From: a virus
Taxonomy: Duplodnaviria > Caudoviricetes
IMG/VR virus record: IMGVR_UViG_3300009104_001126
Span: 1 to 55,930 of that record
Direction: 5' to 3' (one strand)
DNA length: 55,930 bases
Part shown: positions 1,790 through 52,964 of the stretch, one piece after another
Layout of the letters: each line of letters opens with the position of its first letter
Numbering within the stretch: the stretch's first letter is position 1
The notes under the pieces: model-generated
Database searches by the model: none
What the model saw: the letters and a program-made list of their open reading frames with translations, nothing else
What the model was told of the DNA's origin: nothing
Made by a program: the position numbers and the translations under genes

Positions 1790-2467
1790 ATGATAAGTAT
1801 TTTTGGGGATAGTTATGTTGATCCCTGTAGTGGTGATTTAGATCAAAGTAAAAGATGGTATAATAATCTTGGCGAACCAACTTTCGTTTACGGATTAGCA
1901 GGATCAAGTATAGATTGGTCCTTAGATATTTTTATTAGTGGTCATGTGGAAAGATCCGGCAAAATAATTTTTATAGAATCCATACCGCGTCGATTTCATT
2001 TTGAATTTTTAAGAACACCTAAACATGACGCTGCTGTAATGTGGGAGAATGATTGGGAAAATGATAAGTGGCTTTCAGAACCTGGAATGGAATATGTTCA
2101 TCGTCATAAAAGGTTCGTTGAGTATTTTCATAAAAATTATAAAGACTATCATAAAGCAACAAAAGCAAGATGCGTATTAAAAGCGTTATCCGATCAATAT
2201 GAAAAAGTATTATATTTTTCAACCTCTCGAAATGATAATCTTTATAGATCTCCTCACATACAATCAAATAATAATTTTGAAATAGCTGATGTAATGTTAA
2301 TGGATATTTCCAGAGGTGAAATTAAAAGCGACTATGATCCAGAGTTTAGAGATTCAAGATCGAATCATTTTAGTGAAACAAATCATATAATTTTTTCTTC
2401 ATATATAAAGAGAAAGTTTAATAATGAAAGTACTGAAGATATAATATTTGAAAAAAATTTGATATGA
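1790..2467 (+). CDS. SGNH/GDSL-like hypothetical protein
   Basis: N-terminal IFGDS motif and C-terminal NHFSETNH. Confidence 0.55.
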   Translation: MISIFGDSYVDPCSGDLDQSKRWYNNLGEPTFVYGLAGSSIDWSLDIFISGHVERSGKIIFIESIPRRFHFEFLRTPKHDAAVMWENDWENDKWLSEPGMEYVHRHKRFVEYFHKNYKDYHKATKARCVLKALSDQYEKVLYFSTSRNDNLYRSPHIQSNNNFEIADVMLMDISRGEIKSDYDPEFRDSRSNHFSETNHIIFSSYIKRKFNNESTEDIIFEKNLI

Positions 2468-3921
2468 TTTATTGGGGGATAACTTGCGGTTCGCATGATG
2501 GTGCTGTATCGGTATTTAATAATAGTGATTTATTATTTGCAACCGATGCAGAAAGATTTTCTAGAAAAAAGAACGATCCAGAAATTCCCGAAAATCTTTT
2601 TAGTTATATTTTTGAAGAATATGGAAAACCATCTAAAATTTATTTTTATGAAAATCCATATGTGAAGATGTCTCGACGTTGGTACGCGGGACAAAAGCCA
2701 GCCTGGAAACCACCTAAGCTTCCCCATTTTTATTCTGGAAGAGATTTTAAAGTTCATGATTATAAATTGCATTATACATCTCATCATTTATCACATGCGG
2801 CTTATGGATATTATACTTCACCGTTTGATAATGCTATGGTTTTGGTTATCGATGCAATTGGGGAATGGGAAACCTTAACTGTATGGAAAGCTAAAGGTAA
2901 AAAGTTAAAGAAGTTATGGAATTGGAAATATCCTAAATCTTTAGGTTTAATGTATTCCGCATTAACACAATATGCTGGATGGAAACCTAATGAAGAAGAA
3001 TATATTATGATGGGTGCGGCAGCTCGCCAGACACATCCATATGAACCAGTTTATAATAGAATATTGAATATTTGGGAAGAAGGAACATCCTGGCATAAAG
3101 GTTTAAATAAAGTATTAGCCTGGAAAGAAAGACCAGAAGTTCATCCTGAAGATGTCCCTACTGCAGCTCAAGCAGCATATGAAAAACTTTTTAAAGAGAT
3201 AGTAATAAATGTTAGTAAACATAAAGCTAATGAATCCGGTAACATTGTTTTTGTTGGAGGCTGTGCGTTAAATGTTAGTGCCAATAGATTTCTCAGCGAT
3301 AGTTTTACTCGCGTCCATATTCCTCCTAATCCAGGCGACTCTGGTTCTGCTGTGGGATGCATTCTTGCAAGGACAAGAAGGCATATTGATCCTACTCCTT
3401 ATCTTGGTTATGACATACAAGGACCATTTCCGTTCCAAGAAGTAATAGATGAATTAATGATTAAAAGAATAGCAGGGGTTGCTAATGGTAGATGTGAATT
3501 TGGACCGAGAGCATTAGGCAATAGAACTTTGTTTGGAGATCCTAGAGATCCCAAAATAAAAGATAAAATTAATCAAGTAAAGGGTAGAGAACCGTTTAGG
3601 CCATTTGCCCCAATGATATTAGAAGAAGATGTTTCAAAATATTTTAATGGCGGGTTCTTTTCACCATATATGAGTTGCGCGCTTCAAGCAACACAAGAAT
3701 TTAGAAATAATTATCCAGGTGTTGTTCATTTAGATGGAACTTCCAGATTACAAGTTGTTAAAGAAGATCCGCATAGAACATTATTACAAATTTGGAAAGA
3801 TATTACAAAATGTCCAGTGTTATTAAATACATCTTTAAATGTTAAAGGAGAACCGATTGTCAACACCAGAAAAGATGCCGAAGCTTTCACTGCGAAAACG
3901 GGTGTCAACGTATATTCTTAA
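2464..3921 (+). CDS. Carbamoyltransferase (NodU/CmcH family)
   Basis: SHDGA, ERFSRKKND, HHLSHAA, DAIGE, GGCALN, GDSG, EFGPRALGNR, FRPFAP, LLNTSLN motifs. Confidence 0.95.
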   Translation: MIYWGITCGSHDGAVSVFNNSDLLFATDAERFSRKKNDPEIPENLFSYIFEEYGKPSKIYFYENPYVKMSRRWYAGQKPAWKPPKLPHFYSGRDFKVHDYKLHYTSHHLSHAAYGYYTSPFDNAMVLVIDAIGEWETLTVWKAKGKKLKKLWNWKYPKSLGLMYSALTQYAGWKPNEEEYIMMGAAARQTHPYEPVYNRILNIWEEGTSWHKGLNKVLAWKERPEVHPEDVPTAAQAAYEKLFKEIVINVSKHKANESGNIVFVGGCALNVSANRFLSDSFTRVHIPPNPGDSGSAVGCILARTRRHIDPTPYLGYDIQGPFPFQEVIDELMIKRIAGVANGRCEFGPRALGNRTLFGDPRDPKIKDKINQVKGREPFRPFAPMILEEDVSKYFNGGFFSPYMSCALQATQEFRNNYPGVVHLDGTSRLQVVKEDPHRTLLQIWKDITKCPVLLNTSLNVKGEPIVNTRKDAEAFTAKTGVNVYS

Positions 3922-4951: not shown

Positions 4952-5887
4952 ATGAAAATTGGAATAATAGGATGTAGTCATAGTGCAGGTGTTTCTGAAA
5001 GTGGACTATTAAAGAAGTCTGGTGGATTTAATGCTTGGAGGGGCTGGCCAAGAGAATTGGCGAAAGCCTATCCAGATCACGAAGTTCATTTATTTGCTTC
5101 TCCTGGTGGAGGACAGAATAATATGGAATCTGCTTTGAGGACATGTCTCATTGAAGATATTGATATGGTGCTTCTTCAATTTACAACACAGCGACAATTA
5201 TATCCAACCCAAATAGATCGATTTTCGAAAAAGAGCGATGGGTCTTTAGATTCATGGTATACCACACAACGAAAAAATAATTTTGTTTTACGGCAACAAA
5301 AAATGAGATCTCTTTCGATAAAGAATTATGTAGTAGAACGTAAATGCGTTATGGTGGGTAACCATTTTGACGCAAGGAATCGAATACAAGAATTAAAAGA
5401 TGTTGGTGTTAATGGATATGAATTACCACAAGTCTTATTAGAGATATTCATCGATAATGAATACTTTAATGAAATGGCTGAAACATTCTATGGCTGTAAT
5501 AAGTTATATAAAAAATTATTTAAACATTTTTATTCTATGTTATGGGTTCCAACACATAGTTATGGACCGAGCCACGGAGATCAATCTGTTGTAGAGATAA
5601 AAGATAAAGTGCCTCTTTTTATGTCTGAATTTCTAACAGGAAAGAATCTTGATAACAAAGTTGATTGGCCTAAAACAATATATGATTGGTTAGTTGAACA
5701 TTGGACCGAAACTCGTGGCTTGAGTTCAGAGGACGCGAAAAGGATGGTCTTTCATGAATATAAAAAATACAAAGGTCATTTAGGAGAAGAATCACAACAA
5801 GAAGTATTATTCAATTATATTTTAAAACATAGACGATTAAGGGAGGCTTTAGATTATGATAAAAAAGAAGGACCGGAAATTATATGA
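4952..5887 (+). CDS. SGNH-like hypothetical protein
   Basis: N-terminal IIGCSHS, GGGQN, C-terminal GHLGEESQ. Confidence 0.55.
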   Translation: MKIGIIGCSHSAGVSESGLLKKSGGFNAWRGWPRELAKAYPDHEVHLFASPGGGQNNMESALRTCLIEDIDMVLLQFTTQRQLYPTQIDRFSKKSDGSLDSWYTTQRKNNFVLRQQKMRSLSIKNYVVERKCVMVGNHFDARNRIQELKDVGVNGYELPQVLLEIFIDNEYFNEMAETFYGCNKLYKKLFKHFYSMLWVPTHSYGPSHGDQSVVEIKDKVPLFMSEFLTGKNLDNKVDWPKTIYDWLVEHWTETRGLSSEDAKRMVFHEYKKYKGHLGEESQQEVLFNYILKHRRLREALDYDKKEGPEII

Positions 5888-5912
5888 TACTTGGAAATAT
5901 AAAAAAGGAGGT

Positions 5913-6353
5913 ATGATGGAATTTAATAACCCAGTGTTTCAGACAATATTAGGATTAGTGATATTTTATATTGGTCTTAAAATGTTTTCTGGTGGAATGA
6001 AGTCAATGGGAAAATTAGAACATTTAGAATATTTTATACATAATCCCTATTGGATGTTTTTTGGAGCAATTGGTTGTACTCTTCTTTGGCAATCAAGTTC
6101 TCTCTCAACAACCGCGATAATCGGATTAGTTGCTTCAGGTGCTTTACCACTACCTTCTGCAATCGCAGCAGTGCTCGGTGCAAATATAGGAACAACAGGA
6201 ACTATATGGTTAGCTGGTATAATGGTTTCTGATGGTATGCCACAGGGAATAACGAAACAAATAGCACTAGTGCATACAGGAGTAAATGCAGCAATGGCAA
6301 TTGCTTTACTTCCATTTTGTCAAGTCATAGCAAGGTTTGTGTCAAAATTTTAA
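5913..6353 (+). CDS. Na+/Pi cotransporter-like membrane protein, single repeat (NptA/YjbB/SLC34 family)
   Basis: WQSSSLST and GANIGTT signatures, hydrophobic helices; GGAGG RBS before ATG 5913 (track start 5856). Confidence 0.85.
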   Translation: MMEFNNPVFQTILGLVIFYIGLKMFSGGMKSMGKLEHLEYFIHNPYWMFFGAIGCTLLWQSSSLSTTAIIGLVASGALPLPSAIAAVLGANIGTTGTIWLAGIMVSDGMPQGITKQIALVHTGVNAAMAIALLPFCQVIARFVSKF

Positions 6354-6377: not shown

Positions 6378-6487
6378 TGGCTCTGGGGGTTGGATTCGAA
6401 CCAACACATCTTTGATCTAGATTTGATCGATCAATCAAAGATAATACGCAAACAACGTACCGCGTCTTCCTGTTTCGCCACCCCAGA
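6378..6487 (-). tRNA. Non-canonical tRNA-Asn(GUU) with 38-nt variable arm, CCA encoded
   Basis: Reverse complement folds as TCTGGGG/CCCCAGA acceptor, GCG/CGC D-stem, GTACG-TTGTTTG-CGTAT anticodon arm (GTT at 6453-6451), long variable stem, GTTGG-TTCGAAT-CCAAC T-arm, G73-CCA. Confidence 0.85.
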
Positions 6488-6505
6488 GTAAATCCATCCC
6501 TCTGT

Positions 6506-7354
6506 TTAATTGTTCAATGCACTGATGAGTCTGGTTAGTCCTATTCCACCACCGTATCTTGGAAAAAAATCTAAATTTAAAAATTCTTCCAATTCTTTTT
6601 CTACTCTCTCTTCGCCAAATAATTTAAATAATAATTTAGCATATCCTCCGTCAGAAATAGTGTAGAATAGTTCTCTCATTTCCTCTACATCGGCAGATCT
6701 TTCTGCAGATCCAATTGTTTCCATTCCTCCTATAATAACATCACATTTGTTAGCTACATTGCCTTCTTTTTTCATATTCCAAAAGGGGGATGTGGAATAA
6801 GGAAATCGAGTTATAAATCCTACTCCGGTGGGATGTGAATCAGATATCATCTGTTCGTGCTCGTGGTCTAATTCTTCGCAATTAAATTCTGAACACCACT
6901 GGCGATAATCCTTTTCAGGAAACGGTCCAGCAATGCCCCCGACTTCTCCTATCAAACCCAAATGCTTAATCAGATCTCTTTCCATTTGTAACAAGTCTCG
7001 AAAATTACCTGGTGCTTCAAATTCAAACATAGGAAAGATGACTTCGTGTCTTCCTTCAACTATATTTGGTTCTTGTCTATAAGATGTTGAAACACAGAAA
7101 CAACCCGGTAGATCTGGATTGTTGAGTAATTCATATTCGAGCCACATCTGACCAGTTTGAGGAAGTGGCCATATGATATCATTATATGTGTACGTTGCGA
7201 CGGTTGTGGGATCTTCGCAAGCAGCTAATATGGATAATCTGTTTTGGGTATGAACTTCGAGAAAACCTCGGGAATGAAAAAAATCACGGAGACTAACGAC
7301 GACATTGTCAAAATCAGTCGGTGTGATTAGACTAGTCAGGTTGCTCCTTTCCAT
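6506..7354 (-). CDS. Class IIb aminoacyl-tRNA synthetase-like protein, catalytic domain only (AsnRS/AspRS/archaeal asparagine-synthetase-like)
   Basis: Motif 1 LRDFFHSRGFLEVHT, LPQTGQMWLE, motif 2 YRQE...RH..FPMFEFE, ETIGSAER, motif 3 GGGIGLTRL; 282 aa with no N-terminal OB-fold. Confidence 0.85.
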   Translation of the reverse strand: MERSNLTSLITPTDFDNVVVSLRDFFHSRGFLEVHTQNRLSILAACEDPTTVATYTYNDIIWPLPQTGQMWLEYELLNNPDLPGCFCVSTSYRQEPNIVEGRHEVIFPMFEFEAPGNFRDLLQMERDLIKHLGLIGEVGGIAGPFPEKDYRQWCSEFNCEELDHEHEQMISDSHPTGVGFITRFPYSTSPFWNMKKEGNVANKCDVIIGGMETIGSAERSADVEEMRELFYTISDGGYAKLLFKLFGEERVEKELEEFLNLDFFPRYGGGIGLTRLISALNN

Positions 7355-7386
7355 GAAAAAGTGTTAAGTATTTTCCACAATTGGTT

Positions 7387-7394
7387 TATTTATA
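7387..7394 (-). promoter_or_regulatory. T4-type late promoter for the aaRS-like/tRNA unit
   Basis: TATTTATA on + equals TATAAATA on -, about 32 nt upstream of the ORF start. Confidence 0.7.
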
Positions 7395-7436
7395 AAAAAA
7401 GATCCCTAATGATTTGAGCGCTCTACCTGTATCTCA

Positions 7437-7505
7437 TTGAAATCATTGATAATCTTTTTTCAGCAATGATTTCAACACGATATATGTAACTCCTTGAAAT
7501 CATTG
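7437..7505. repeat. TTGAAATCATTG boxes (direct and inverted)
   Basis: TTGAAATCATTG at 7437-7448 and 7494-7505; exact inverse CAATGATTTCAA at 7464-7475. Confidence 0.85.
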
Positions 7506-7518
7506 ATAAACAAAAGTG

Positions 7519-7547
7519 TTGACATTTTGGGCTAGTTGTTATATAAT
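7519..7547 (+). promoter_or_regulatory. Sigma70-like early promoter
   Basis: TTGACA (7519-7524), 17 nt, TATAAT (7542-7547). Confidence 0.9.
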
Positions 7548-7595
7548 ATATATAAAGAATGAGAGAATTTTCGCCAACCTTCAACGAGAGAGATT

Positions 7596-7763
7596 ATGTG
7601 TAAATTGTATGTATATTATGAAAGTTGCTTCGAGGACAAGAAGCTGTGTTGCACAGAGATCATCGTTCCATATGATGAACAGATCCAGGATGCCATCAAA
7701 CATTATAAGACAGGTGGTAGAATTGTGATCACAGAACCCGTAACCGAATTATTGAGTGTATAA
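7596..7763 (+). CDS. Small early hypothetical protein (55 aa)
   Basis: MCKLYVYYESCFEDKKLCCTEIIVPYDEQIQDAIKHYKTGGRIVITEPVTELLSV; TAATG overlap with the next gene; below the track cutoff. Confidence 0.7.
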   Translation: MCKLYVYYESCFEDKKLCCTEIIVPYDEQIQDAIKHYKTGGRIVITEPVTELLSV

Positions 7764-10327
7764 TGTACGATCAACTGAAAGAACAAAAAAGTATTTTAGC
7801 AAGACTAATGGCATCGGAGAACATTTCTGTTCGCCACGCTAAAGTTCCTACCGCAGGATTCAATCCAACAACCAGAACATTGGTTTTACCAATTCTCAAA
7901 GAGATGGAAGGTGATGTCTATGACTTATTCGTTTGTCACGAAGTAGGACATGCTTTATATACACCATCTCAAGGTTGGCATAGCGTCATCGAGAAGAAAG
8001 GTCCTAACTATAAAGGATTTTTGAATATCGTAGAAGATGCGAGGATTGAAAAATTAATCAAAAGAAAATTCGCAGGCGCTGCAAAAGCAATGCACAAGGG
8101 ATATAAAATATTGGTTCACGATAGAGATTTTTTCGGACTTAAGCAATATAATATTGATATCGATTCTGCATCGCTCATCGATAAACTTAATATCCATTTC
8201 AAAGGCGGACCTTTGGAGAATGTTAAATTCACTGAAGATGAAAAACCATTTATTGAGAAAATGGAAAAGCTGGAAACATGGGAAGATGTTGAAGAGCTGA
8301 CTGAAGAACTTTGGAAATATGCTGAAGAGAACGAAGAAGATCAAATGACATGTACCGACGATATGTCAATGGAAGAATCGATCGAATATGAAGATGATGA
8401 CGATGACGATGAAGAAGAGTGGGAAGATTTTCAAGATTCATATGATCGAGAATCCGATAATGATTGTGATGCTCCGGTTGATAAATGTGATAATTCAGAT
8501 CAACCAGAAAATAATACAGATGGAAATGATGAAGGTGGTTCATCTGAAGAAGAACAAGAAAAAGAGAATAGCGAAGGTGAAACAAAAGCTGAAGATTCTT
8601 CTGAGGGAAAAGAAGAAGAAAGTAAATCTGAAGGAGGTACAAGTTCAGGTGGAGGATATGATCAATGGTATGAAGATAATGCTTGGAAATCCGGCAGAGA
8701 ACCAAGATCGATAACCGATCAACACTTTCGTGAAAAAGAAGAAGAGTTAGTTCACGAAGACGCACTGGATTTAAAATATTATAATTCTCCGAAAATTAAT
8801 TTGAAACATGTAGGACCAGACGGCAGACCTTTAATCATAGGTTACAAAGAGCTTTTGAAAAGAACACAGAGTGCCTTAGATGCGCGCGAAAAACACTTAG
8901 TAGAAAGTAAGTTGACTTCCTTAGATTGGGAGAGAGAAAGTTCTGTTATGTTCGGATATGCGAAAGAATATTTGAAATATGTTGATAAAGAAAATAAGCC
9001 AGTTGTTAATTATCTCGTTAAAGAATTTGAGATGAAAAAGAAAGCGGCTGAATATAAAAGATCTGCGACAGCAAATTCAGGTGTTATATCACTTTCAGAT
9101 ATTCACAAGTACAAATATTCTGATAATATATTTAAAAAGATTACTATTGTTCCCGAAGGAAAAAATCACGGACTTTATTTTTTGATGGATTGGTCAGGTT
9201 CAATGAGTGAAAAAATAATGCCGACCTTAGTTCAGTTATTTCAATTAATAGATTTTTGTAGGAAGTGTAACATTTCTCATGAAGCATATGCTTTCGTTGA
9301 TTATAGTTATGATGAACAGGGACATTCATTAACTGAAGAAGGGACCTTCGGTTTTCCTTTCAAACCAGAAGCTAATTCATTAGCAGTAGGAGATATTGCA
9401 ACACAATTGGTTGAAATATTTTCACATAAAATGACTGCAAAGGAATTTAATGCTCAACGTGAATATCTTCTTTTATCGATCTTACGATGCGATAGAGATT
9501 TCACTGGTGCGCCTTGGTTAGATGAGAAAAAAGAAAGAGCTCATTGGAGAAACCAAATGAATGGTAACACCAGAGCTAGAGTTCCAAAAGATACAATTCC
9601 ATATTTAATTTATAAATCTTGGGGTCAAGAGAAGAAGTGTCAAACTAATTGGGAATGGAATTCAATAGGACGATTTGTTAAGTTCCCATTAGAAAGACTT
9701 TGTGGAACTCCTTTGAATGATGCGATCTTGGTCAGCACAGAAAATGTTAAAAGATTTAAAAGAGAAAATAATCTTGACATAGTTAATACAATTATTCTTT
9801 CAGATGGAGAATCAAATTCATCTCATAGATTTTATTCTGAAGAGAAAATGGCTGAAGCAGAAAAGACCGGTAACATGAAGGACATCACTGAAATGATAAG
9901 TTCAAGAGAATGTAAAATCAAATTAGTGGACAGAGAAACAAAGGATGTTTTTGAATGGACTGCTGTTCATGGAATGAGACAGACAAAAAACTTTCTTGAT
10001 TATTTTAAAGCAAAAACAGGTTCGAATGTTATAGGATTCTTCCTTACATCTTCAGCTGATGACGCTGGACGAGTTGTCGGTTGGCATGATTGGTCTACTG
10101 CAAAAGCAGAATATAATAGACTTGGTTATTTGATTAGGCAAGATCATGGTTACGATGAGCTCTATGTGATCAAATCTCATAGTTCTGTTCCTCTGGAAGA
10201 TGAGATCAAAGTGGATACTGATAAGAAAAATACAACCGCGACGTTAGCAAAGGCATTCAAGAATTTCCAAAAAGGCAAATTGGAAAAGAGAATAATGTTG
10301 CAAAGCTTCGCAGAAAAGGTTGCATAA
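7763..10327 (+). CDS. Metallopeptidase-like/VWA domain protein (CobT-like partner of the AAA+ ATPase)
   Basis: HEVGH and EDARIE, acidic linker, MIDAS DWSGS...GTPL...SDGES. Confidence 0.85.
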   Translation: MYDQLKEQKSILARLMASENISVRHAKVPTAGFNPTTRTLVLPILKEMEGDVYDLFVCHEVGHALYTPSQGWHSVIEKKGPNYKGFLNIVEDARIEKLIKRKFAGAAKAMHKGYKILVHDRDFFGLKQYNIDIDSASLIDKLNIHFKGGPLENVKFTEDEKPFIEKMEKLETWEDVEELTEELWKYAEENEEDQMTCTDDMSMEESIEYEDDDDDDEEEWEDFQDSYDRESDNDCDAPVDKCDNSDQPENNTDGNDEGGSSEEEQEKENSEGETKAEDSSEGKEEESKSEGGTSSGGGYDQWYEDNAWKSGREPRSITDQHFREKEEELVHEDALDLKYYNSPKINLKHVGPDGRPLIIGYKELLKRTQSALDAREKHLVESKLTSLDWERESSVMFGYAKEYLKYVDKENKPVVNYLVKEFEMKKKAAEYKRSATANSGVISLSDIHKYKYSDNIFKKITIVPEGKNHGLYFLMDWSGSMSEKIMPTLVQLFQLIDFCRKCNISHEAYAFVDYSYDEQGHSLTEEGTFGFPFKPEANSLAVGDIATQLVEIFSHKMTAKEFNAQREYLLLSILRCDRDFTGAPWLDEKKERAHWRNQMNGNTRARVPKDTIPYLIYKSWGQEKKCQTNWEWNSIGRFVKFPLERLCGTPLNDAILVSTENVKRFKRENNLDIVNTIILSDGESNSSHRFYSEEKMAEAEKTGNMKDITEMISSRECKIKLVDRETKDVFEWTAVHGMRQTKNFLDYFKAKTGSNVIGFFLTSSADDAGRVVGWHDWSTAKAEYNRLGYLIRQDHGYDELYVIKSHSSVPLEDEIKVDTDKKNTTATLAKAFKNFQKGKLEKRIMLQSFAEKVA

Positions 10328-43062: not shown

Positions 43063-43926
43063 ATGGAATTACAGTTTACCAATATATTTAGGACAGACGA
43101 GACTAACATAGGCGATTCTTATAGTACTCCAACAAGATATTTTGATTTACCCGGAAATCAAAAAGATATCTATAAAATGGAGTATGATTATAAACCCCCA
43201 CATGAAAATGTTATCTATGGAGGCGGAGGTCTTATAGGACAATTTAGACCAATGTCTCATGTTATAAAATTTCAAAAAAATACTAATCATAGAATATACG
43301 GTTGGGGATTAGGAGAACATACATATGTTTGTTTAGATGAACAAACCCAATGTATTCCCCCAATGAATATAACGTATCCAGCCTATATAAGAGCATTTGA
43401 TTTAATGGGTATACGAGATCATCATTCTCATTTATATCATGCAATTCCTCATGCAAGATGGGTTCCGTGTGCTAGTTGTATGCACGAAGCTTTTGATAAA
43501 GAATATGAAGTAAAACATGATATTGTGTTTTTTACACATGCTCAACTTCCAATGAATATTATTCACGGTATGCCAAAAGAAACTTGGGATTATCCACATA
43601 AGGCAAACAGTGAAATGAATTTTGAAGAAACAATAGAATTTTTAGGTAGTGGTGATATTATAATTACAAATTCTTTTCATGGAGCTTACTGGGCAACATT
43701 ATTAGGAAAAGTAGTTTGTTGTTTTCCTTGGTCTTCTAAATTTTATGGTTTAAAACATCAACCTTTATATTGTCCTACAACAGATTGGTGGAAAACTATT
43801 AATGAGAAGGAACAAAGACAATATAAAAGTTCACTAGAAGAATGTAGAGAAGCGAATAAAAAATTTCATATAGAATTAATAGAACATGCACAGAACTCAC
43901 CAAGAACATTTAAGGTTGAAATATGA
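43063..43926 (+). CDS. Polysaccharide pyruvyl transferase-like protein
   Basis: NIGD, YGGGGLI, GIRD, ITNSFHG, SSKF. Confidence 0.7.
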   Translation: MELQFTNIFRTDETNIGDSYSTPTRYFDLPGNQKDIYKMEYDYKPPHENVIYGGGGLIGQFRPMSHVIKFQKNTNHRIYGWGLGEHTYVCLDEQTQCIPPMNITYPAYIRAFDLMGIRDHHSHLYHAIPHARWVPCASCMHEAFDKEYEVKHDIVFFTHAQLPMNIIHGMPKETWDYPHKANSEMNFEETIEFLGSGDIIITNSFHGAYWATLLGKVVCCFPWSSKFYGLKHQPLYCPTTDWWKTINEKEQRQYKSSLEECREANKKFHIELIEHAQNSPRTFKVEI

Positions 43927-44948
43927 AAGACATTTATAAAGATAAAACAATACCTCAAAGAGGTGAAAAAAATATAGCTAGGAATTCTTTTGGAGGAACT
44001 GAATTAACAACATTAGAATTATGGTCGCATTTACCTAAAAAATATAAAACAGATTATCATTGGGTAATTTCAAGATTATATCCTGAAGATCTACAATCCG
44101 TTTTACCTAAAATTTGGTGGTTCCATGACCTAGCAAAAGATCCATGCCATGAATATTTAAAAGTCAGAGGTCAAGTCAATGAATTTGATAGATTAATTTT
44201 TTCAAGTTATTGGCAAATGCATAGTTTTATGGAAATATATGATTTGCCAATGGATCGATGTGAAGTTCAAAAAACAGCAATATTTCCGCACGAACATTAT
44301 GATAAACCCAAAGACGGTAAAATTAATTTAATATATGCTTCTACTCCTCAAAGAGGTTTACACATATTATGTAATGCGTTACATTTACTTGAAAGAGATG
44401 ATTTTCATTTACATGTTTATTCAAGTTTTAGTGTATATGGTTGGAAAGAAAATGATCAACCTTATAAAGAATTATTTGATCATATTGAACAAAATCCTAA
44501 TATGACGTTACATCCTAGTGTTGTAGGAAGACCTTTAAGAGAAGAATGGAAAGACATGCATATTTGGGCTTATCCATGTATATGGGAAGAAACATCTTGT
44601 AGGACTGCTATGGAAGCAATGTCTTCTCGAACATTGATGCTAACGAATAGTTTAGGTGCATTACCTGAAACTTGCTCTGATCATGCTATTATGTATCCTT
44701 ATATTAAAGACGAAGTCCAGCATGCTGATAGAATGGCAGATGAATTAGATAAATTATTAGATAATTATTGGGACGATGAAAATCAGGAAATGTTGTCAAC
44801 AGCCAAAGCTCATGCAGACAAATATTATAGTTGGGAATATAGAGCTCCAAGATGGTTAGATATGTTTCATTATATGGATATTGAAGATGAACTCGAAGAA
44901 ACCGTCGAAACTACTGACGAAGAAAAAATAGCAACCGCGATATCATGA
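43923..44948 (+). CDS. Glycosyltransferase (GT-B, family 4-like)
   Basis: GGTE, STPQRGL, EETSCRTAMEAM, GALPET. Confidence 0.85.
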   Translation: MKDIYKDKTIPQRGEKNIARNSFGGTELTTLELWSHLPKKYKTDYHWVISRLYPEDLQSVLPKIWWFHDLAKDPCHEYLKVRGQVNEFDRLIFSSYWQMHSFMEIYDLPMDRCEVQKTAIFPHEHYDKPKDGKINLIYASTPQRGLHILCNALHLLERDDFHLHVYSSFSVYGWKENDQPYKELFDHIEQNPNMTLHPSVVGRPLREEWKDMHIWAYPCIWEETSCRTAMEAMSSRTLMLTNSLGALPETCSDHAIMYPYIKDEVQHADRMADELDKLLDNYWDDENQEMLSTAKAHADKYYSWEYRAPRWLDMFHYMDIEDELEETVETTDEEKIATAIS

Positions 44949-45364
44949 TAAAAGGATTTACAGCATCTGCTTTTGATTTATTACATGTAGGACACATTGT
45001 AATGTTAGAAGAAGCAAGAAAAAATTGTGATTATTTAATCGTTGGACTCCATACTCATCCTGCCCATAAGAAAAATTTAGTTCAAACTGTTTTTGAACGA
45101 TATATTCAATTAAAAGGCTGTAAATATGTTGATGAGATTATTCCTTATGAATCAGAAGATGATCTTAAAAATTTATTACAAACCTTAGATATAGATATTA
45201 GATTTTTGGGTGAAGATTATTTGCGTGACAATAAACCCATTACAGGTTATAATACGTGTACGTTACGAAAAATCCATCTTCATTATTGTGGAAGATTTCA
45301 CCCTTATTCATCAACTGAACTGAAAAAAAGAATTGTTAGTATGTCAGACACCCTTACGGATTAG
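44945..45364 (+). CDS. Cytidylyltransferase (TagD/HldE domain II-like)
   Basis: FDLLHVGH, LIVGL, ER, VDEII, SSTELK. Confidence 0.88.
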   Translation: MIKGFTASAFDLLHVGHIVMLEEARKNCDYLIVGLHTHPAHKKNLVQTVFERYIQLKGCKYVDEIIPYESEDDLKNLLQTLDIDIRFLGEDYLRDNKPITGYNTCTLRKIHLHYCGRFHPYSSTELKKRIVSMSDTLTD

Positions 45365-46292
45365 CTTTTTCGGGGGTGGAACCGATATTCCAGAATATTA
45401 TACTTCACGGCCTCACGGAGGCCAGGTCATAAGTGCCGCTATTGATAAATCTACTTATATTATATTAAATAGATTATATCGAGATCAATTCGTTTGTAAT
45501 TATACCAAAAAAGAAACAGTTAATTATATTGATGATATCGAACATGAATATATTCGCGAAGTTCTCAGGCATTTTAATGTAAAGCCAGGTCTTGAAATTA
45601 CAACATTGGCGGACATTCCTTCTGAGGGTTCTGGCTTAGCTTCTTCTTCAAGTATATTAGTTGGTTTAATAAATGCTATAAGTACTTGGATTGGAGAGCC
45701 GATGAATCGCGTCGATATAGCGCATCTAGCATGTCATATTGAGCTTGAAATCCTAGATAAGCCAATTGGGAAACAAGATCAATTTGCTGTTAGCTACGGC
45801 GGTTTTAACCACTTTCAATTTCTTGAAAATGGTACTGTGAAAATTAAAGAATTACCATATAGTAAAAAATTTGAAGAAAAGTTCGTTTTAGTCAATACTG
45901 GGCTACATAGACAATCATCTTCAATTCTCTCTTCTCAAAAAAAATCCATTGATAAAAAAATTGATAATTACGATTCAATATATAAATTTTGTACTAAAGC
46001 TTTAGAACATTATAAAAATAAAGAATATGATGAATTTGGTATGGATATGAGTAGGTCCATGCAAATTAAAAGCACACTCGCTAAAGGAATTACTAATAAA
46101 GCAATTAATAATATAGTTAAATCTTCAATTCCATGGTCATATGGTTATAAAATATGTGGTGCAGGTGGTGGAGGATATTTACTTTTTATGACAGATAATG
46201 CAAATGAGATACATATGAGAAATAGAGTTTTGAATACATTTGATGTTAAATTTGATAAATTAGGAACTAGAATAGTATTTTATAATGAATAA
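45333..46292 (+). CDS. hddA: GHMP sugar kinase (heptose-7-phosphate kinase-like)
   Basis: PLRISFFGGGTD, GSGLASSS, GKQDQ, KICGAGGGG. Confidence 0.85.
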   Translation: MLVCQTPLRISFFGGGTDIPEYYTSRPHGGQVISAAIDKSTYIILNRLYRDQFVCNYTKKETVNYIDDIEHEYIREVLRHFNVKPGLEITTLADIPSEGSGLASSSSILVGLINAISTWIGEPMNRVDIAHLACHIELEILDKPIGKQDQFAVSYGGFNHFQFLENGTVKIKELPYSKKFEEKFVLVNTGLHRQSSSILSSQKKSIDKKIDNYDSIYKFCTKALEHYKNKEYDEFGMDMSRSMQIKSTLAKGITNKAINNIVKSSIPWSYGYKICGAGGGGYLLFMTDNANEIHMRNRVLNTFDVKFDKLGTRIVFYNE

Positions 46293-46971
46293 AAATATAG
46301 GTATAAACTGGAATCGAAAAATCGAAGAAAATAAAATGTTCGCAATAACAGCGGGTTCTTACATAGAAATAAAGGATAAGACAGGATGGCTAGGACACGC
46401 GACTTCTGTGTATAATTCCTTACAAGAAGTTGAGGAAAGCTCTATAAAATACCTAATAGAATGTATTTGGAGCATATATATAAACGAAAAACAATTTTTT
46501 ATATGTGGGAATGGTGGCAGTGCGTGCAACTCTAATCATTTTGCGCAAGATTTAACAAAAGGAACAATTGGAAATGGAATTTCAAGACCTAGGATTAAAG
46601 CTATATCTCTTTGTAACGATATCGGCTTCATTACTGCTACATCTAACGATGATTCATACGATAATATATTTAAGCACCAACTTGTAGCTCATGCTAACGA
46701 AGGTGATGGATTATTCGTTATAAGTGGTAGTGGCAATAGTAAAAATCTCATAGAGGCCGTTGAATGGTCAAATTCAAACGGGATAGAAACTTATGGGATT
46801 TTGGGTTATGATGGTGGAAAAATAAAAGACAAACTCTCAAGTTATATACATATTAATTTAAATCACATGGAAAAGTGTGAAGGCATAATGTCGATCATTT
46901 TACATTATGTTATGTGTCAACTAAAAGATATGATTGAAAATAAACATGGCTTTTCAAAAAAGATCACTTGA
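46285..46971 (+). CDS. gmhA: Phosphoheptose isomerase (SIS domain)
   Basis: CGNGGS, HFAQD, TATSND, ISGSGNS, GYDGG. Confidence 0.88.
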   Translation: MNKNIGINWNRKIEENKMFAITAGSYIEIKDKTGWLGHATSVYNSLQEVEESSIKYLIECIWSIYINEKQFFICGNGGSACNSNHFAQDLTKGTIGNGISRPRIKAISLCNDIGFITATSNDDSYDNIFKHQLVAHANEGDGLFVISGSGNSKNLIEAVEWSNSNGIETYGILGYDGGKIKDKLSSYIHINLNHMEKCEGIMSIILHYVMCQLKDMIENKHGFSKKIT

Positions 46972-47704
46972 AGCAAAACATATGGGAGAAGAACCTGATC
47001 CTAGAGATTGGGAAGGGTTTGATGATGCTCAATTGCAAGAAGCAATATATGAAGCCTTTAGGTGGTATTATAAATTTTTTGATTTTAAAGAGAGTATGGG
47101 CTTTGTTCAAGAATATTATAAAAAGAACAAAGTAAAAAGTAAATCTCCTGGTAAAATTAAAATTACCGATCTCGCTCAAGTTGGTAACCATGTTGGATAT
47201 CTTGCGCGATTAAAAACAAGAGGATGTAATTTTTTACCAGAAAAGTTCGAAACTCTTTTTATTGATAAGTTAAAAAAGATTGAAGAATTGGCTTCTGTGC
47301 GTAAATCCCAAGAAGCTGCTAAGCCGGATAAAATAAAACCAGATATTCAAAAAAGAATTCGAGAAGCCGCGAGGAAATTAAGGTATGATATAGAAGATGT
47401 TGTTGATGAACAACTCGAAGAAGATTTTAAAAAGAAATTTAATTTTAAACTTTTTTTAGAACGTAATAAAGTTTCAAAACCGGTCGCTAAACATTTAAAA
47501 CCTGAAATCGAAGATTTGGCTAATGAGATAAAATTAGCTAAAGATGGAGATCCAGATTTTAAAGAGGCTTATAGTCATATGAGTGGCCATTTACAAAATA
47601 GACTAATAAAATTTTATGATAAAATGATAGAGGAATGTGATGTGATAATTACAACAAAGAAGGTAAAGGTTAAAAAAGCAGCGAGATACAAACGAAAAAA
47701 ATAA
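46946..47704 (+). CDS. Conserved T4-like hypothetical protein
   Basis: MGEEP, IQKRI, FKEAYSH; upstream of rnh. Confidence 0.7.
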   Translation: MAFQKRSLEAKHMGEEPDPRDWEGFDDAQLQEAIYEAFRWYYKFFDFKESMGFVQEYYKKNKVKSKSPGKIKITDLAQVGNHVGYLARLKTRGCNFLPEKFETLFIDKLKKIEELASVRKSQEAAKPDKIKPDIQKRIREAARKLRYDIEDVVDEQLEEDFKKKFNFKLFLERNKVSKPVAKHLKPEIEDLANEIKLAKDGDPDFKEAYSHMSGHLQNRLIKFYDKMIEECDVIITTKKVKVKKAARYKRKK

Positions 47705-47705
47705 C

Positions 47706-48563
47706 ATGATATTAATTGATTATAATCAGATGATAATTGCAAATTTCATGCAATTTCGAAAACAGTTTGAACCAGGTAAAGAAGATTCCATAATGAGGCA
47801 CATGGTTCTGAACAATATTAAAATGATTAAAAATAAATTTAGTGCCAAATATGGAAAAGATATAGTTTTTTGTTGTGATAGCAAAAAGAATTGGCGTAAA
47901 GATGTTTTTCCTTATTATAAAGCCAATAGAAAAAAAGTAAGAGAAGAGAATAAACAAAATGTAGACTGGGAAGCTCTGTTTAATATTCTTGATGGCATTC
48001 GAGATGAAATTGCTGAAAATATGCCTTATAGAGTAGTTGCATTAGACGGATGTGAAGCAGATGACATTATTGGTGTTATTTGTAAAAATTATTCTCATAA
48101 AGATTATAATATATTAATAGTTTCCTCAGATAAAGATTTTATTCAATTGCAACGATATCCTAATGTATTTCAATGGTCACCTCGAACCAAAAAATTCATT
48201 AAAGAGTCAGATCCGGAAAAACAATTGCGTGCCTTAATAGTAAAAGGCGATAGAAGTGACGGGATACCTAATATTCTTTCAAACGATACTTGTTTAGTAG
48301 AAGGAATGAGACAAAAGCCAATGTCTAAGCGGAAGATCCTAGATTGGCTAAATATAATACCGGAAAAGGCATTCGAGGGGGAGATCTTACGTAACTTCAA
48401 ACGCAATGAAACCTTAATAGATTTGGGGCGTATCCCAGATAAAATAGAGATAAATATAAAAACACGATATGAAAGTGAACAATATCTAGGTCGTGAAAGG
48501 ATGCTTAATTATTTCATTAAGCACCGCCTTAAAGATATGACTGAATCGATACAGGAGTTTTAG
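47706..48563 (+). CDS. rnh: RNase H / 5'-3' exonuclease
   Basis: ILIDYNQ, WRKDVFPYYKANR, EADDII, SSDKDF, GDRSDGIPN. Confidence 0.95.
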   Translation: MILIDYNQMIIANFMQFRKQFEPGKEDSIMRHMVLNNIKMIKNKFSAKYGKDIVFCCDSKKNWRKDVFPYYKANRKKVREENKQNVDWEALFNILDGIRDEIAENMPYRVVALDGCEADDIIGVICKNYSHKDYNILIVSSDKDFIQLQRYPNVFQWSPRTKKFIKESDPEKQLRALIVKGDRSDGIPNILSNDTCLVEGMRQKPMSKRKILDWLNIIPEKAFEGEILRNFKRNETLIDLGRIPDKIEINIKTRYESEQYLGRERMLNYFIKHRLKDMTESIQEF

Positions 48564-48566
48564 ATT

Positions 48567-49034
48567 ATGGCTAGATCACTATTAGAATTATTGGAATTAG
48601 TAGACAAGGCAAAAAGCCAAAAGGAGCGAGGAGAGCTACTTAAACAAAATCATACAGATCATCTGGAGAACTTATTGTGGTACACGTTCCATCCGGATGT
48701 AAAATTTTTGTTGCCAGAGGGGAAGCCGCCGTTTAACGCTGGTGCCGAAGATCCGAGTTCAACAATGATGTTTCAACAAATACGTAAATTACGTTATTTT
48801 GTAGAAGGACCCGGAGGAGAAGCTTTTTGTGTGGGAAACAATATTAATCCAATTAAAAGAGAAACGATGTACATAGGAATGTTAGAGAGCGTTACACCAA
48901 GAGAAGCCGAGTTTCTTGTAAATATAAAAAAGAAAGATCTCGGAATAAAAGGCCTAACTTACAAACTCGTAAGTGAAACTTTTCCCCATCTGTTACCACC
49001 AATGCAAACAGCTAAAGAATCTAGCAACACTTAG
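48567..49034 (+). CDS. Conserved T4-like hypothetical protein
   Basis: LPEGKPP, KRETMYIGMLES, ETFP. Confidence 0.75.
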   Translation: MARSLLELLELVDKAKSQKERGELLKQNHTDHLENLLWYTFHPDVKFLLPEGKPPFNAGAEDPSSTMMFQQIRKLRYFVEGPGGEAFCVGNNINPIKRETMYIGMLESVTPREAEFLVNIKKKDLGIKGLTYKLVSETFPHLLPPMQTAKESSNT

Positions 49035-49091
49035 AATAGATAAACATATCATAATAATGGAAATGTGACTTAACATTTCGGAGCAAGTTAT

Positions 49092-49700
49092 ATGAAATTT
49101 TTATTAGCTTTGGTTATAGCTGTGGGAGTTCTTACTTACCCAGCAAAAATAGTTATACAGGATAAGGAAGCCGTGGCGGCGAAGACAAATATGCCAGGCG
49201 TCCATCAACCAACAGATCTCCTGTTAACTGAAAATACTTCACTTATTGGTCCAACTGGTTCACCGAGGATGGACGCAATGATATCAGTAGACCAAAAAGA
49301 AGTCGCCTGTCTGGCAAAAAATATATATTTTGAAGCCGCAGTAGAAAGTACTGCTGGGAAATTGGCCGTAGCGCACGTTACTTATAATAGAGTTCGAAGC
49401 GGGCATTTTCCTAATACTTATTGTGAAGTAATTTTTCAAGGAGCTCATACCAGTACCGGTTTTCCAGTACGAGATCGATGTCAATTTAGTTGGTATTGTG
49501 ATGGGGTTCATGATACACCGTATCCAGGAAAAACTTGGCAAAAAGTACAAGATTTAGCAGAGTATTTTTATACACACGAAAACCTTAGAGATATAACAGA
49601 TGGTGCTACTCATTATCACGCTGATTATATTAATAATCCTAGGTGGACTACATATAAAAAGAAAACGGTTAAAATAGATACACACATTTTTTATAGGTAA
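49092..49700 (+). CDS. SleB/CwlJ-like cell wall hydrolase
   Basis: Signal/TM segment, CLAKNIYFEA, NRV, CQFSWYCDG, GATHYHA, HIFY. Confidence 0.9.
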   Translation: MKFLLALVIAVGVLTYPAKIVIQDKEAVAAKTNMPGVHQPTDLLLTENTSLIGPTGSPRMDAMISVDQKEVACLAKNIYFEAAVESTAGKLAVAHVTYNRVRSGHFPNTYCEVIFQGAHTSTGFPVRDRCQFSWYCDGVHDTPYPGKTWQKVQDLAEYFYTHENLRDITDGATHYHADYINNPRWTTYKKKTVKIDTHIFYR

Positions 49701-49703
49701 ATT

Positions 49704-49967
49704 ATGCCAACATATGATTATGGTTGCGTGGAATGTGATTACGAAGTTGAAGAGATTCTTCCCATTGCAAGAAGGCATGAGCCTTTGGAAAGCCCTTGCC
49801 CGAAGTGCAATGGAAGAATTGAACAGAAAATTGCATGTCCGGGATTTGTATATGATAACATTTCGGGTACGACCGCTAAGGGTCATAAGAAAAAGCCAGA
49901 CCAAGCTTTTACAGATCACCTGAAACAAATAAAGCGAAATTATCCTGGAGCAACAATGAATGTTTGA
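49704..49967 (+). CDS. FmdB-family zinc ribbon protein
   Basis: MPTYDYGCVEC...CPKC. Confidence 0.85.
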   Translation: MPTYDYGCVECDYEVEEILPIARRHEPLESPCPKCNGRIEQKIACPGFVYDNISGTTAKGHKKKPDQAFTDHLKQIKRNYPGATMNV

Positions 49968-50604
49968 TCATGTAGACCTTGAGTTTGAAGAATTAAATTC
50001 AATCACAAAAAATGGTTCTAGAGTTTATGATACTCCTGACGGAACCTTTCCATCAATTACAACAGTATTAGGTAGAAAAAAAGCTCAATTCTTTAAAGAA
50101 TGGAGAGCTAGAATTGGTGAAGAAGAAGCCAATAAAATAACAACTCAAGCGACCCGCCGTGGAACAAAAGTCCACAAAGTTATAGAAAATTATATTTTTA
50201 ATAAAGAAGATTATTTCGAAAATTCATTACCGAATGTTCGAGAGATGTTTAATACTGTTAAACCCCATTTAGATGATAAGCTCGCTAATATTGCAGGTAT
50301 AGAAATTCCACTATGGAGTAAACATTTAGGAGTTGCTGGTCGTTGTGATTGTGTAGCCGATTGGAAAGGGCAGAAAGCAATTATAGATTGGAAAACATCT
50401 TCGAAGCCCAAAAAGAAAGAATGGGTTGAAGAATATTTTCTCCAGGCTACAGCTTATTCCATAATGTTTGAAGAAAGAACAGAAATTCCAATAAATAATA
50501 TTGTAATAGTAATTGCTGTTGAAAATGAAGAACCTCAAATTTTTGAAGAAAAATCTTTTGATTATTGGAAGTTGCTTGAATCAACATTAAAGGAGTGGCT
50601 ATGA
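49960..50604 (+). CDS. PD-(D/E)XK exonuclease
   Basis: PSITTVL, RGTKVH, AGRCDC, IIDWKTS, QATAY. Confidence 0.88.
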   Translation: MFDHVDLEFEELNSITKNGSRVYDTPDGTFPSITTVLGRKKAQFFKEWRARIGEEEANKITTQATRRGTKVHKVIENYIFNKEDYFENSLPNVREMFNTVKPHLDDKLANIAGIEIPLWSKHLGVAGRCDCVADWKGQKAIIDWKTSSKPKKKEWVEEYFLQATAYSIMFEERTEIPINNIVIVIAVENEEPQIFEEKSFDYWKLLESTLKEWL

Positions 50605-51389
50605 AAGTATTAATTACCGGAGTTAAGGGATTTATTGGTCATCACTTATATAATTTTTTATCTGAAGAGGGACATGAAGTTTATGGTATCGATAATTGTT
50701 CAGGATTAGGTTGGGATAGTCGAGATGTTCCTCACGAAGATTGTGATATTACTAAAGATGAACTACCACATACCGATGCAGATGCAGTAGTTCATTTAGC
50801 AGGGAAAGCTGGTGTTCGCGATAGCTGGAAACCAAAATATTTAAAAAAATATTATGATATTAATGTTACCGGAACTAAACGAATTTTTGATACCTACGCA
50901 AATTCTAGAATTTATTATGCATCGAGTTCATCTGTTAAAGATTTAAAAAGCCCTTATGCGATGACAAAAGCTATGTGTGAAGTCATGGCACCTATACATG
51001 CTATAGGGATGAGATTTTTTACTGTATGGGGGCCTCAATCTCGACCCGATATGTTTTATAGACAATTGCAAGAAGGAAAAATTGGATATTTAACAACCCA
51101 TACAAGAGATTGGTTGCATGTAACAGATTGTGTAAAAGCAATCTATTTAATTATGACAGAAACTTTTATATCTCTTCAACATTTTCCAAGAGTATATGAC
51201 ATTGGATATGGCACACCTAAATCTGTTTACGATTTTGCTAAAGAAAATGCTCCCGAAGATTTTGATATTGATTCAATTGATTTTAAAAATGTAACTGGCG
51301 AAAGTGAAGAAACTTGTGCTGATCCTACCGAAATTAAAAAGTTGGGTTGGAAACCGGGTTTGCCTAGTGATGATTTCTATGTAGAATAA
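50601..51389 (+). CDS. NAD-dependent nucleotide-sugar epimerase/dehydratase (WcaG-like)
   Basis: ITGVKGFIG, HLAG, ASSSS, YAMTK, RFFTVWG. Confidence 0.9.
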   Translation: MKVLITGVKGFIGHHLYNFLSEEGHEVYGIDNCSGLGWDSRDVPHEDCDITKDELPHTDADAVVHLAGKAGVRDSWKPKYLKKYYDINVTGTKRIFDTYANSRIYYASSSSVKDLKSPYAMTKAMCEVMAPIHAIGMRFFTVWGPQSRPDMFYRQLQEGKIGYLTTHTRDWLHVTDCVKAIYLIMTETFISLQHFPRVYDIGYGTPKSVYDFAKENAPEDFDIDSIDFKNVTGESEETCADPTEIKKLGWKPGLPSDDFYVE

Positions 51390-52534: not shown

Positions 52535-52544
52535 GGGGAAATGA

Positions 52545-52964
52545 ATGTCACATATGAATTTTAAAATGGTCGGAACGAAAACGAAAGAAGGCGGCTGGGA
52601 TGATATAAGAGAATTTAAACGTGAACATCTTATAGATACTCCGGGTTATGTTGATGACACAGGACTCTTGGTTCAATTCGAAGACAAATTAACTAATTCA
52701 GTTATAACTTGTAATGAATGTTTTGTTCCCTCAGAAAATGCATCATATCATAAATTAGAAATTGATACTGACGCTGACGATTTAATAAACAATCTTAAAA
52801 CTGCAATAGATGCTACTTCTAGTTGGAATCTCGTAAATGTTTCTTATATAACTGATGAAGAATTTAATACAGCGAGTACGGGACAAACTTTAATGGCTTG
52901 TTGTGGTAATTGTGCGACGGGAACTGAATTAATTGCTGTTTGTTTAGCGAGTCGTGCTGGATAA
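52545..52964 (+). CDS. Hypothetical protein, Cys-containing
   Basis: 139 aa, AAGGGG RBS; CNEC and CCGNC...C. Confidence 0.7.
   Translation: MSHMNFKMVGTKTKEGGWDDIREFKREHLIDTPGYVDDTGLLVQFEDKLTNSVITCNECFVPSENASYHKLEIDTDADDLINNLKTAIDATSSWNLVNVSYITDEEFNTASTGQTLMACCGNCATGTELIAVCLASRAG

Follow-up and report, generated by a model that had tools for sequence, protein, structure and literature searches.

What is a tRNA that carries the anticodon for asparagine on the body of a tRNA for another amino acid, and which enzyme serves it? The question is raised by a 110-nt tRNA gene at 6378..6487 of a 55,930-nt stretch of DNA from a virus of the Caudoviricetes (IMG/VR record IMGVR_UViG_3300009104_001126), here called the window, by which the whole stretch that was analysed is meant. 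An earlier sequence-only reading had described the gene as a tRNA-Asn with type II architecture, a long variable arm and U37, and had raised the idea that it might be charged with serine. That reading left the strand unstated and overlooked the neighbouring gene. The tRNA lies on the minus strand, directly behind an open reading frame (ORF), P0001, whose predicted product resembles the catalytic core of asparaginyl-tRNA synthetase (AsnRS). The two genes recur side by side in marine T4-like phages, and we propose, with what we consider about an even chance of being right, that the pair is co-transcribed and that the tRNA is charged, by way of its acceptor end, by a minimal AsnRS-like enzyme dedicated to it.

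The coordinates, the GUU anticodon, U37, G73, the CCA end and the 38-nt arm of the earlier description were all confirmed. The acceptor stem TCTGGGG/CCCCAGA forms all seven of its pairs (6487-6481 with 6388-6382) and opens with U1-A72. It is followed by a D-arm that reads GCG / AAACAGGAAGA / CGC, with an 11-nt D-loop that includes GG, by an anticodon stem of 5 bp, one of them G-U, and by the anticodon loop UUGUUUG, in which U33 falls at 6454 and U37 at 6450. The T-arm is normal (GTTGG / TTCGAAT / CCAAC), and the discriminator, G73 at 6381, is followed by CCA at 6380-6378. The minimum-energy fold is a cloverleaf plus the long arm (-35.1 kcal/mol, z -2.56; 3 of 200 shuffles were equally stable). 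With a variable region of more than 10 nt that forms a stem-loop and a D-stem of 3 bp, the structure is that of a type II tRNA, yet its anticodon, GUU (Asn), is not of the Leu, Ser, Tyr or Sec kind that accompanies such a structure. It departs as well from the canonical elongator pattern of a 7-nt loop with U33 and a purine at 37, having U33 but U37. Standard tools pass over it: ARAGORN detected no tRNA in the whole window, and a scan of the whole window at Rfam gathering scores returned no family. Presented with the region alone, Rfam model RF00005 scored 38.3 bits (gathering score 29; E 9.8e-07) over model positions 1-71 of 71, in an alignment that carries a 35-nt insertion in the variable region.

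The gene is one member of a phage tRNA(GUU) family that follows relatives of P0001. A scan of viral contigs yielded 595 stretches with such relatives, 80 of whose loci were examined (related protein clusters number at least 8000), and a covariance model, R1, built from 41 family tRNAs was run over these 80. In 71 of them, as in the window, R1 found a family tRNA downstream of the synthetase-like gene and on the same strand (58-94 bits; 83.3 bits and E 6e-18 for the window copy), while three loci (L008, L053 and L070) stop too soon past the gene to be evaluated. The distance from stop codon to tRNA in the 71 related loci has a median of 9 nt and a range of -18 to 226 nt, and this short spacing on one strand points to co-transcription of the two genes. 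Relatives of the P0001 ORF, annotated as 'tRNA ligase', were found by DNA search in the Prochlorococcus phages P-SSM2, P-SSM5 and P-SSM7. Directly behind the ORF, P-SSM5 and P-SSM7 have an annotated 'tRNA-Asn' of 85-86 nt, and ARAGORN places the corresponding tRNA there in P-SSM2. The P-SSM2 RefSeq record (NC_006883.2, locus L001) puts its tRNA-Asn feature, PSSM2_199, at locus 5254-5339, inside PSSM2_205; the real gene is at locus 3242-3329, about 2 kb away and just after the 'tRNA ligase' gene. No conserved third gene stands beside the pair in the window or in these three phages. Among minor observations on the examined loci, one phage lineage (L012, L018, L025, L027 and L033) has a conserved 75-nt tRNA-Cys (GCA) gene on the opposite strand, at a distance of about 900-1100 nt on the upstream side of the synthetase-like gene; in L056 an array of tRNAs (Ser, Phe, Glu, Cys and Arg) lies upstream of that gene, and no family tRNA lies downstream.

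Clear evidence that the RNA is maintained as a tRNA comes from covariation. In the 41-sequence alignment, 99.6% of 818 cells fall in standard pairs and 17 of 20 pairs have changed on both sides, a pattern that none of 500 shuffles matched; when the 3' partners were slid by 1-3 columns, 41-53% remained paired. Judged by this covariation, the 110-nt element is a genuine gene selected as a tRNA, and the earlier suspicion of selection rather than decay is borne out both here and by the 72 family members. Constraint is far from uniform along the molecule. Counted over 58 distinct family sequences, 56 of them complete, the anticodon is GUU in 57 and GUC in one (L060), the pair 1:72 is U-A in 55 of 56 and U-G in the other, and G73 is present in all 56. 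Positions 8-9 are UG in 53 and UA in three of the 56, the D-stem has 3 bp in all 41 aligned sequences, and the D-loop always measures 10 or 11 nt (56/56). Elsewhere there is latitude. Of the 56 genes, 37 encode CCA and 19 do not; among the 58 sequences, 42 have U33, nine have C33 and seven have A33, and U37 is found in 46, G37 in eight and A37 in four. The variable region spans 5-39 nt.

From 13 nt upward every variable region forms a hairpin, the stem of which grows with the region, in a continuum that reaches 39 nt. Arms homologous to that of the window occur in L004 (39 nt) and in L005/L006 (38 nt, with A37). In a protein tree (FastTree, midpoint root, 162 rows, L111 and L159 left out) variable regions in the clade that holds the window (8 rows, support 100) measure 38, 38, 38, 39, 29, 20 and 7 nt; L139 and L117, in the other phage clade, have unrelated long arms of 38 and 33 nt. 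These comparisons indicate that long arms are recurrent and labile, that the family cannot be defined by the arm or by U37, and that the arm in the window is one extreme. The emphasis that had been placed on both features must be relaxed accordingly, given the 5-39 nt range, U37 in 46 of 58 and the A37 of L005/L006. It had also been said that ordinary tRNA-Asn genes with A37 among close relatives would overturn the earlier interpretation. Some relatives do measure 77-79 nt, but their D-arm is still the unusual one, and the eight short forms carry G37 in seven cases and U37 in one. The 33-nt core of the window's arm is present in one copy in the window and in none of 100 shuffles; a mobile palindromic insert was considered and rejected on the strength of that single copy.

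The D-arm had been assigned to a Leu/Ser type, and comparison of D-loops together with the R1 matches makes it more exactly Leu-type. From position 8 to 26 the family is identical or nearly identical to bacterial tRNA-Leu, letter for letter in some members, and the best matches of R1 in five bacterial genomes were tRNA-Leu at all 10 loci examined (57-66 bits). Measured against a tRNA-Leu chassis the family shows exactly three differences, namely pair 1:72 (U-A), position 73 (G) and the anticodon. The D-arm and the long variable hairpin are common to both, whereas the bacterial tRNA-Leu genes compared have G1-C72, A73 and arms of 13-15 nt where the phage family has U1-A72, G73, GUU and arms of up to 39 nt. 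According to passages of one treatment of tRNA identity (PMC9976931), bacterial Asn identity resides in the anticodon and G73, U1-A72 is the mark by which Asp-tRNA-Asn is singled out for amidation, G73 counts as an anti-determinant against leucyl-tRNA synthetase (LeuRS), the modified base t6A (N6-threonylcarbamoyladenosine) at position 37 shields yeast tRNA-Asn from aspartyl-tRNA synthetase (AspRS), and the tRNA-Leu discriminator, in its identity table, is A73. By these passages the family, with GUU, G73 and U1-A72, carries the signals of a bacterial tRNA-Asn and, with G73 in 56 of 56, not the discriminator of tRNA-Leu; the G73 that had been taken for a determinant of seryl-tRNA synthetase (SerRS) belongs to a set for Asn identity and amidation and is not specific to SerRS.

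The body tells a different story from the signals. Bacterial tRNA-Asn also shares the 7-bp acceptor stem, the 5-bp T-stem and the TTCGA T-loop with the window tRNA, but it has a type I body with a variable loop of about 5 nt, a 4-bp D-stem and t6A37, whereas the window tRNA has a 38-nt arm, a 3-bp Leu-type D-arm and U37, on which t6A is impossible. By sequence comparison, then, the tRNA is a chimera in which a Leu-type D-arm, mostly with a long arm, is combined with Asn-type GUU, G73 and U1-A72. There is some precedent for bodies and anticodons of different classes with a synthetase-like gene of their own adjacent: the ProRSx/tRNA-ProA systems of bacteria, which serve deliberate mistranslation, and the allo-tRNAs. 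The phage pair differs from these in that the acceptor and anticodon signals agree (Asn), so that no recoding is implied, in that its stems are 7/5 rather than 8/4 or 9/3, and in its domain-stripped enzyme and viral setting.

The sole Pfam match of P0001 is PF00152 (class II D/K/N; E 6.2e-17, residues 17-280), and the protein falls in phrog_29758 (E 1e-111), whose function is unknown; Protein Atlas returned nothing beyond its own viral clusters. An AlphaFold (AF2) model built from a 36-row alignment (pLDDT 87.5, pTM 0.86) was used for fold comparison. Foldseek placed AsnRS in the top 11 rows and in 12 of the 13 best displayed, with 1x54 first (E 7.8e-19). VIA-align Z scores, among which differences below 1 are ties, were 26.6-25.8 for AsnRS (the top seven chains), 25.7-25.1 for archaeal-type AspRS, 23.8-23.3 for archaeal asparagine synthetase A (over 244-246 residues), 23.1-22.4 for GenX and about 22 for lysyl-tRNA synthetase. 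The best match of the family profile among PDB sequences was Brugia AsnRS (1.2e-09), to whose QSSQLYLE the pocket motif QTGQMWLE aligns; Leishmania AspRS has QSPQLYKQ at this place. The residues of this AsnRS-like pocket are the ones that we take to decide specificity for asparagine. Residues R93, E95, R102, H103, E212, R219 and R275 of motifs 2 and 3 are invariant in the P0001 family. A homologue, P0076, has a 52-residue internal duplication across motif 2 (alignment columns 110-161).

Canonical AsnRS (PDB 1x54, 8h53, 2xgt) superposes on the P0001 model with a root-mean-square deviation of 2.4-2.6 over 250 residues at 22-25% identity, and shares motifs 2 and 3 and the QxxQxxLE pocket. What P0001 lacks is the N-terminal OB-fold. 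The enzyme of a canonical tRNA-Asn thus has an anticodon-binding domain that the partner of the window tRNA is without. The window was searched up to E 1 for the anticodon-binding OB-fold family PF01336 without a match, the control being positive in 14 of 14 genomes; within the window, which amounts to only some third of a genome, a separate anticodon-binding protein was accordingly set aside. By fold and pocket P0001 can be called AsnRS-like but, given its low scores against the AsnRS models, not a member of AsnRS. Its core-only architecture recalls archaeal asparagine synthetase A (3p8t, 3reu) and GenX/EpmA/PoxA (3a5y), which measure about 280-325 aa. These act on free aspartate and on elongation factor P, respectively, rather than on tRNA, and we know of none that is encoded beside a bespoke tRNA. 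Against the EpmA/GenX model NF006828, P0001 scored 18 bits (cut-off 264).

The enzyme is not confined to phages. A scan of one genome per species gave 414 cellular relatives at 55-72% identity, in Patescibacteria, Dependentiae, Rickettsiales, Legionellales, Bdellovibrionales and Aureispira among others; NCBI names them 'amino acid--tRNA ligase-related protein', and 'transposase' in two cases. The gene of Patescibacteria has housekeeping neighbours, Dus on its upstream and DnaX on its downstream side, and it is rare there (2 of 151 sampled genomes). Eighty of the 414 loci were examined for the family tRNA, which was present at six, all of them contigs of marine metagenome-assembled genomes that are placed inside phage clades. 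Among the genome contigs (L084-L163), carriers without the tRNA include L088, L122, L113 and L153, and the core is 55-62% identical. Nor did five whole carrier genomes yield a partner tRNA: the 10 best R1 loci examined there were all tRNA-Leu. In each of the five, asnS was not above the cut-off, gatB was present, and AspRS was accompanied by a short paralogue. These observations are compatible with a cellular enzyme that would act as a minimal AsnRS on the acceptor end of the cell's own tRNA-Asn.

For the phage module we favour the following sequence of events. A minimal class IIb core of AsnRS type would be co-transcribed with a bespoke tRNA, usually encoded within about 10 nt behind it, and the tRNA would be excised from the 3' end of the mRNA. 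Lacking an anticodon-binding domain, the enzyme would read U1-A72, G73 and CCA and would charge the tRNA, most likely with asparagine. The product would decode AAY codons and give these marine T4-like phages a direct supply of Asn-tRNA independent of the host. Such codons are common, AAU occurring 640 times and AAC 117 times in 43 ORFs of the window (Asn, 5.4% of codons). The labile arm, together with the relaxation at positions 33 and 37, may provide anti-determinants that keep host enzymes or nucleases away; escape from anticodon nucleases and freedom from t6A, both raised earlier for U37, are possible from the sequence.

Several findings weigh against this proposal. P0001 scores far under the cut-offs of the AsnRS models (27.5 of 342.6 bits for TIGR00457, 26.2 of 414 for NF003037). 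A non-U at position 33 in 16 of 58 family members and a pyrimidine at 37 in 46 of 58 are odd for a ribosomal decoder, and in the window copy U32 and G38 can pair, which would shrink the anticodon loop to 5 nt. GUU is nearly fixed even though the partner has no domain with which to read it, implying another reader of GUU, be it the ribosome or a host enzyme. One member (L060:2380-2478), otherwise typical with G37 and a 27-nt arm, carries GUC (Asp), and its neighbours in the protein tree have GUU. R1 found no adjacent family tRNA at six of the 77 evaluable viral loci (L036, L048, L056, L059, L069, L076) and only ordinary tRNAs near the other 74 of the 80 cellular loci. The phage and cellular enzymes, moreover, have 93 common residues at 95% conservation or more and no position that is conserved but different; such equal conservation with and without the tRNA suggests an enzyme that does the same thing in both settings and does not need a bespoke tRNA.

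These difficulties give room to a reading in which host enzymes serve the tRNA, an AsnRS or a non-discriminating AspRS recognising GUU and G73 and GatCAB using U1-A72. The neighbouring gene would then encode either a tRNA-independent asparagine synthetase of the archaeal A type or an amidating enzyme for tRNA-bound Asp, with the pairing a means of coupling Asn supply to Asn decoding. We regard this reading as unlikely. It would account for an invariant GUU next to an anticodon-blind protein and for the conservation of that protein in genomes without the tRNA. The amidation signal U1-A72 and the missing A37, hence the missing t6A that acts in yeast tRNA-Asn as an anti-determinant against AspRS, would fit as well by the passages cited (PMC9976931), as would the core-only architecture held in common with archaeal asparagine synthetase A. 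That said, P0001 reaches 19 bits against a cut-off of 389 for the asparagine synthetase A model NF005055, no asparagine synthetase A chain appeared at E 0.001 in the profile search of PDB, and AsnRS chains outrank that enzyme in the fold comparison. All five carrier genomes lack asnS above the cut-off and have gatB, so free Asn would be useless for translation there, and the presence of the enzyme in such AsnRS-less genomes argues against a plain asparagine synthetase. The tight same-strand spacing in 71 loci also exceeds what a loose metabolic link would need. Somewhat less probable again is an RNA that is mainly not a decoder at all, be it a non-ribosomal aminoacyl carrier, a decoy for nucleases of the anticodon loop, or an element of tRNA shape at the 3' end through which the synthetase-like mRNA is regulated or stabilised. 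The relaxation of U33 and of purine 37 beside a fixed GUU is what a protein-recognition element might show, the RNA does sit in the 3' untranslated end of an mRNA, and its variable arm is free in length and sequence. However, no conserved third gene is adjacent to use an aminoacyl-tRNA, the full conservation of the acceptor and T-arm speaks for a tRNA that can be charged, as do G73 and the CCA that 37 of 56 encode, and a decoy would leave the partner enzyme unexplained.

The remaining explanations fare worse. Charging by SerRS, for which the long arm and G73 would speak, or by LeuRS, for which the Leu-type body and its D-arm would, would place Ser or Leu at Asn codons; we think this quite improbable. 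Eight of 58 members keep the partner and GUU with a variable loop of 5-7 nt, and the arm is thus no shared identity element. The D-loop is of Leu and not of Ser type, G73 is an anti-determinant for LeuRS (again in the cited part of PMC9976931), and exchanging Asn for Ser across a proteome in which Asn is so frequent would be costly. With a dedicated AsnRS-like core encoded 18 nt upstream and conserved with the tRNA, a partner of its own is more parsimonious than SerRS, and the Ser-charged reader of Asn codons put forward in the sequence-only reading, which overlooked this context, loses ground. Hardly credible, finally, is a broken tRNA-Asn gene with an insertion, mobile palindrome or intron in its variable loop. 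The arm is rich in palindromes and the gene is missed by tools tuned to normal tRNAs, as such damage would have it, but every stem is intact and covaries. The arm is single-copy in the window, arm lengths are continuous from 13 to 39 nt and always form a hairpin, the arm is kept in L004 and L005/L006 with unrelated long arms in L139 and L117, and no RNA-library contig joins across it. An intron looks less likely, too, given the bacterial and phage context and a perfect 9-bp stem in which no bulge-helix-bulge motif is seen. An archaeal intron or split tRNA, suggested by the GC-rich stems in AT-rich DNA, was given up in view of the T4-like phage window and the continuum of arm lengths.

If a dedicated AsnRS-like enzyme does charge the tRNA, a wider and more tentative picture can be drawn, one that we think more apt to be wrong than right. 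The module would be a natural, self-contained and anticodon-blind synthetase:tRNA pair in which the acceptor end (U1-A72, G73) is read on a tRNA-Leu chassis, providing Asn-tRNA independently of GatCAB to marine phages and, sporadically, to parasitic or epibiotic bacteria without AsnRS. The foreign body, the arm and positions 33 and 37 would insulate it from host synthetases, from dependence on t6A and from anticodon nucleases. In a bolder version the enzyme would load an amino acid other than Asn and the phage would recode its AAY codons. Were the wider picture true, no natural class II enzyme that charges a full tRNA would be smaller than this 280-aa core of AsnRS type, nature would have rebuilt a tRNA identity together with a core-only synthetase, which is the goal of those who engineer orthogonal pairs, and abundant ocean phages would have gained a translation function. 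It bears, too, on how organisms without AsnRS are supplied with Asn-tRNA.

The gene pair is not new to the databases, being annotated already in GenBank, and one table row of PMC3037559 lists a 'tRNA ligase' as T4-GC 194, with 741 bp in P-SSM2 and 798 bp in P-SSM7. In the full-text literature searched, which leaves subscription journals outside, no analysis was found that deals with the pair, with its Leu-type body or with the absence of an anticodon-binding domain, and to judge from the sequences compared the pair looks like a widespread ocean-phage synthetase:tRNA variant that is undescribed in that literature. ARAGORN labels 59 of the 72 family members tRNA-Asn, and not one of the 13 whose arms measure at least 27 nt; members with long arms are overlooked or mislabelled by standard tRNA finders and would be undercounted in censuses of phage tRNAs.

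The window itself is part of a T4-like myophage with a GC content of about 33%. It encodes the gp45 clamp, the gp44/gp62 clamp loader, RegA, gp43 polymerase and UvsX, along with gp41 helicase, RNase H, ThyX and a class II ribonucleotide reductase; its gp43 is only about 50% identical to the polymerases of cultured cyanomyoviruses. Nearly all genes are on the plus strand; the tRNA and a single ORF, P0001, stand as a small island on the minus strand (Table 1). Contigs from RNA libraries (four runs from three studies, depth 2 to 9) cover parts of 6472-7367, and one of them extends from the synthetase-like ORF 16 nt into the tRNA. None lies over the tRNA body at 6378-6471, a gap that is uninformative. 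Such contigs cannot show RNA ends and may include carried-over DNA, so they do not prove transcription.

Table 1. Features of the synthetase-tRNA module in the window
Feature	Position	Strand	Remarks
tRNA gene, phage tRNA(GUU) family, Leu-type body	6487..6378	minus	110 nt; U1-A72, G73, encoded CCA
U8-G9 and D-arm	6462..6480	minus	3-bp D-stem and 11-nt D-loop, bacterial tRNA-Leu type
Anticodon GUU	6451..6453	minus	G34 6453, U35 6452, U36 6451
Variable region, long hairpin	6406..6443	minus	38 nt; perfect 9-bp stem ATCTTTGAT/ATCAAAGAT
Spacer	6488..6505	minus	18 nt, synthetase-like stop codon to tRNA position 1
Class IIb synthetase catalytic core P0001, AsnRS-like	6506-7354	minus	282 aa; ends 18 nt 5' of tRNA
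Intergenic region 5' of module	7355..7762		weak sigma-70-like minus-strand sites 7729-7702, 7622-7593

Promoter and terminator scans gave counts no higher than those of shuffles; the seven promoter sites found in 7355..7762, against 6.4 expected from shuffles, are not evidence of function. The same interval includes a perfect sigma-70 consensus on the plus strand (TTGACA, 17 nt, TATAAT; 7519-7547), which faces an 854-aa ORF of unknown family at 7763-10327. About 2.5 kb from the tRNA module, at 2464-3921 (+), lies a gene for a 485-aa carbamoyltransferase of the NodU/TobZ type (Carbam_trans_N, Carbam_trans_C). Enzymes of this type consist of Kae1-like and YrdC-like domains, which are related to the machinery for t6A37; the closeness of such a gene to a tRNA without A37 is probably a coincidence. 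A 165-aa ORF at 5856-6353 (+) comprises just the first Na/Pi-cotransporter repeat (PF02690, E 9.5e-16) and overlaps the end of the preceding 311-aa ORF; it may be a fragment or a small phage phosphate transporter. Farther off, a run of sugar- and LPS-type genes at 43063-55928 (+), including a pyruvyl transferase-like gene, a glycosyltransferase, a cytidylyltransferase, a GHMP kinase, an SIS isomerase, an epimerase/dehydratase and a radical SAM gene, is similar to the surface-polysaccharide clusters of cyanomyoviruses.

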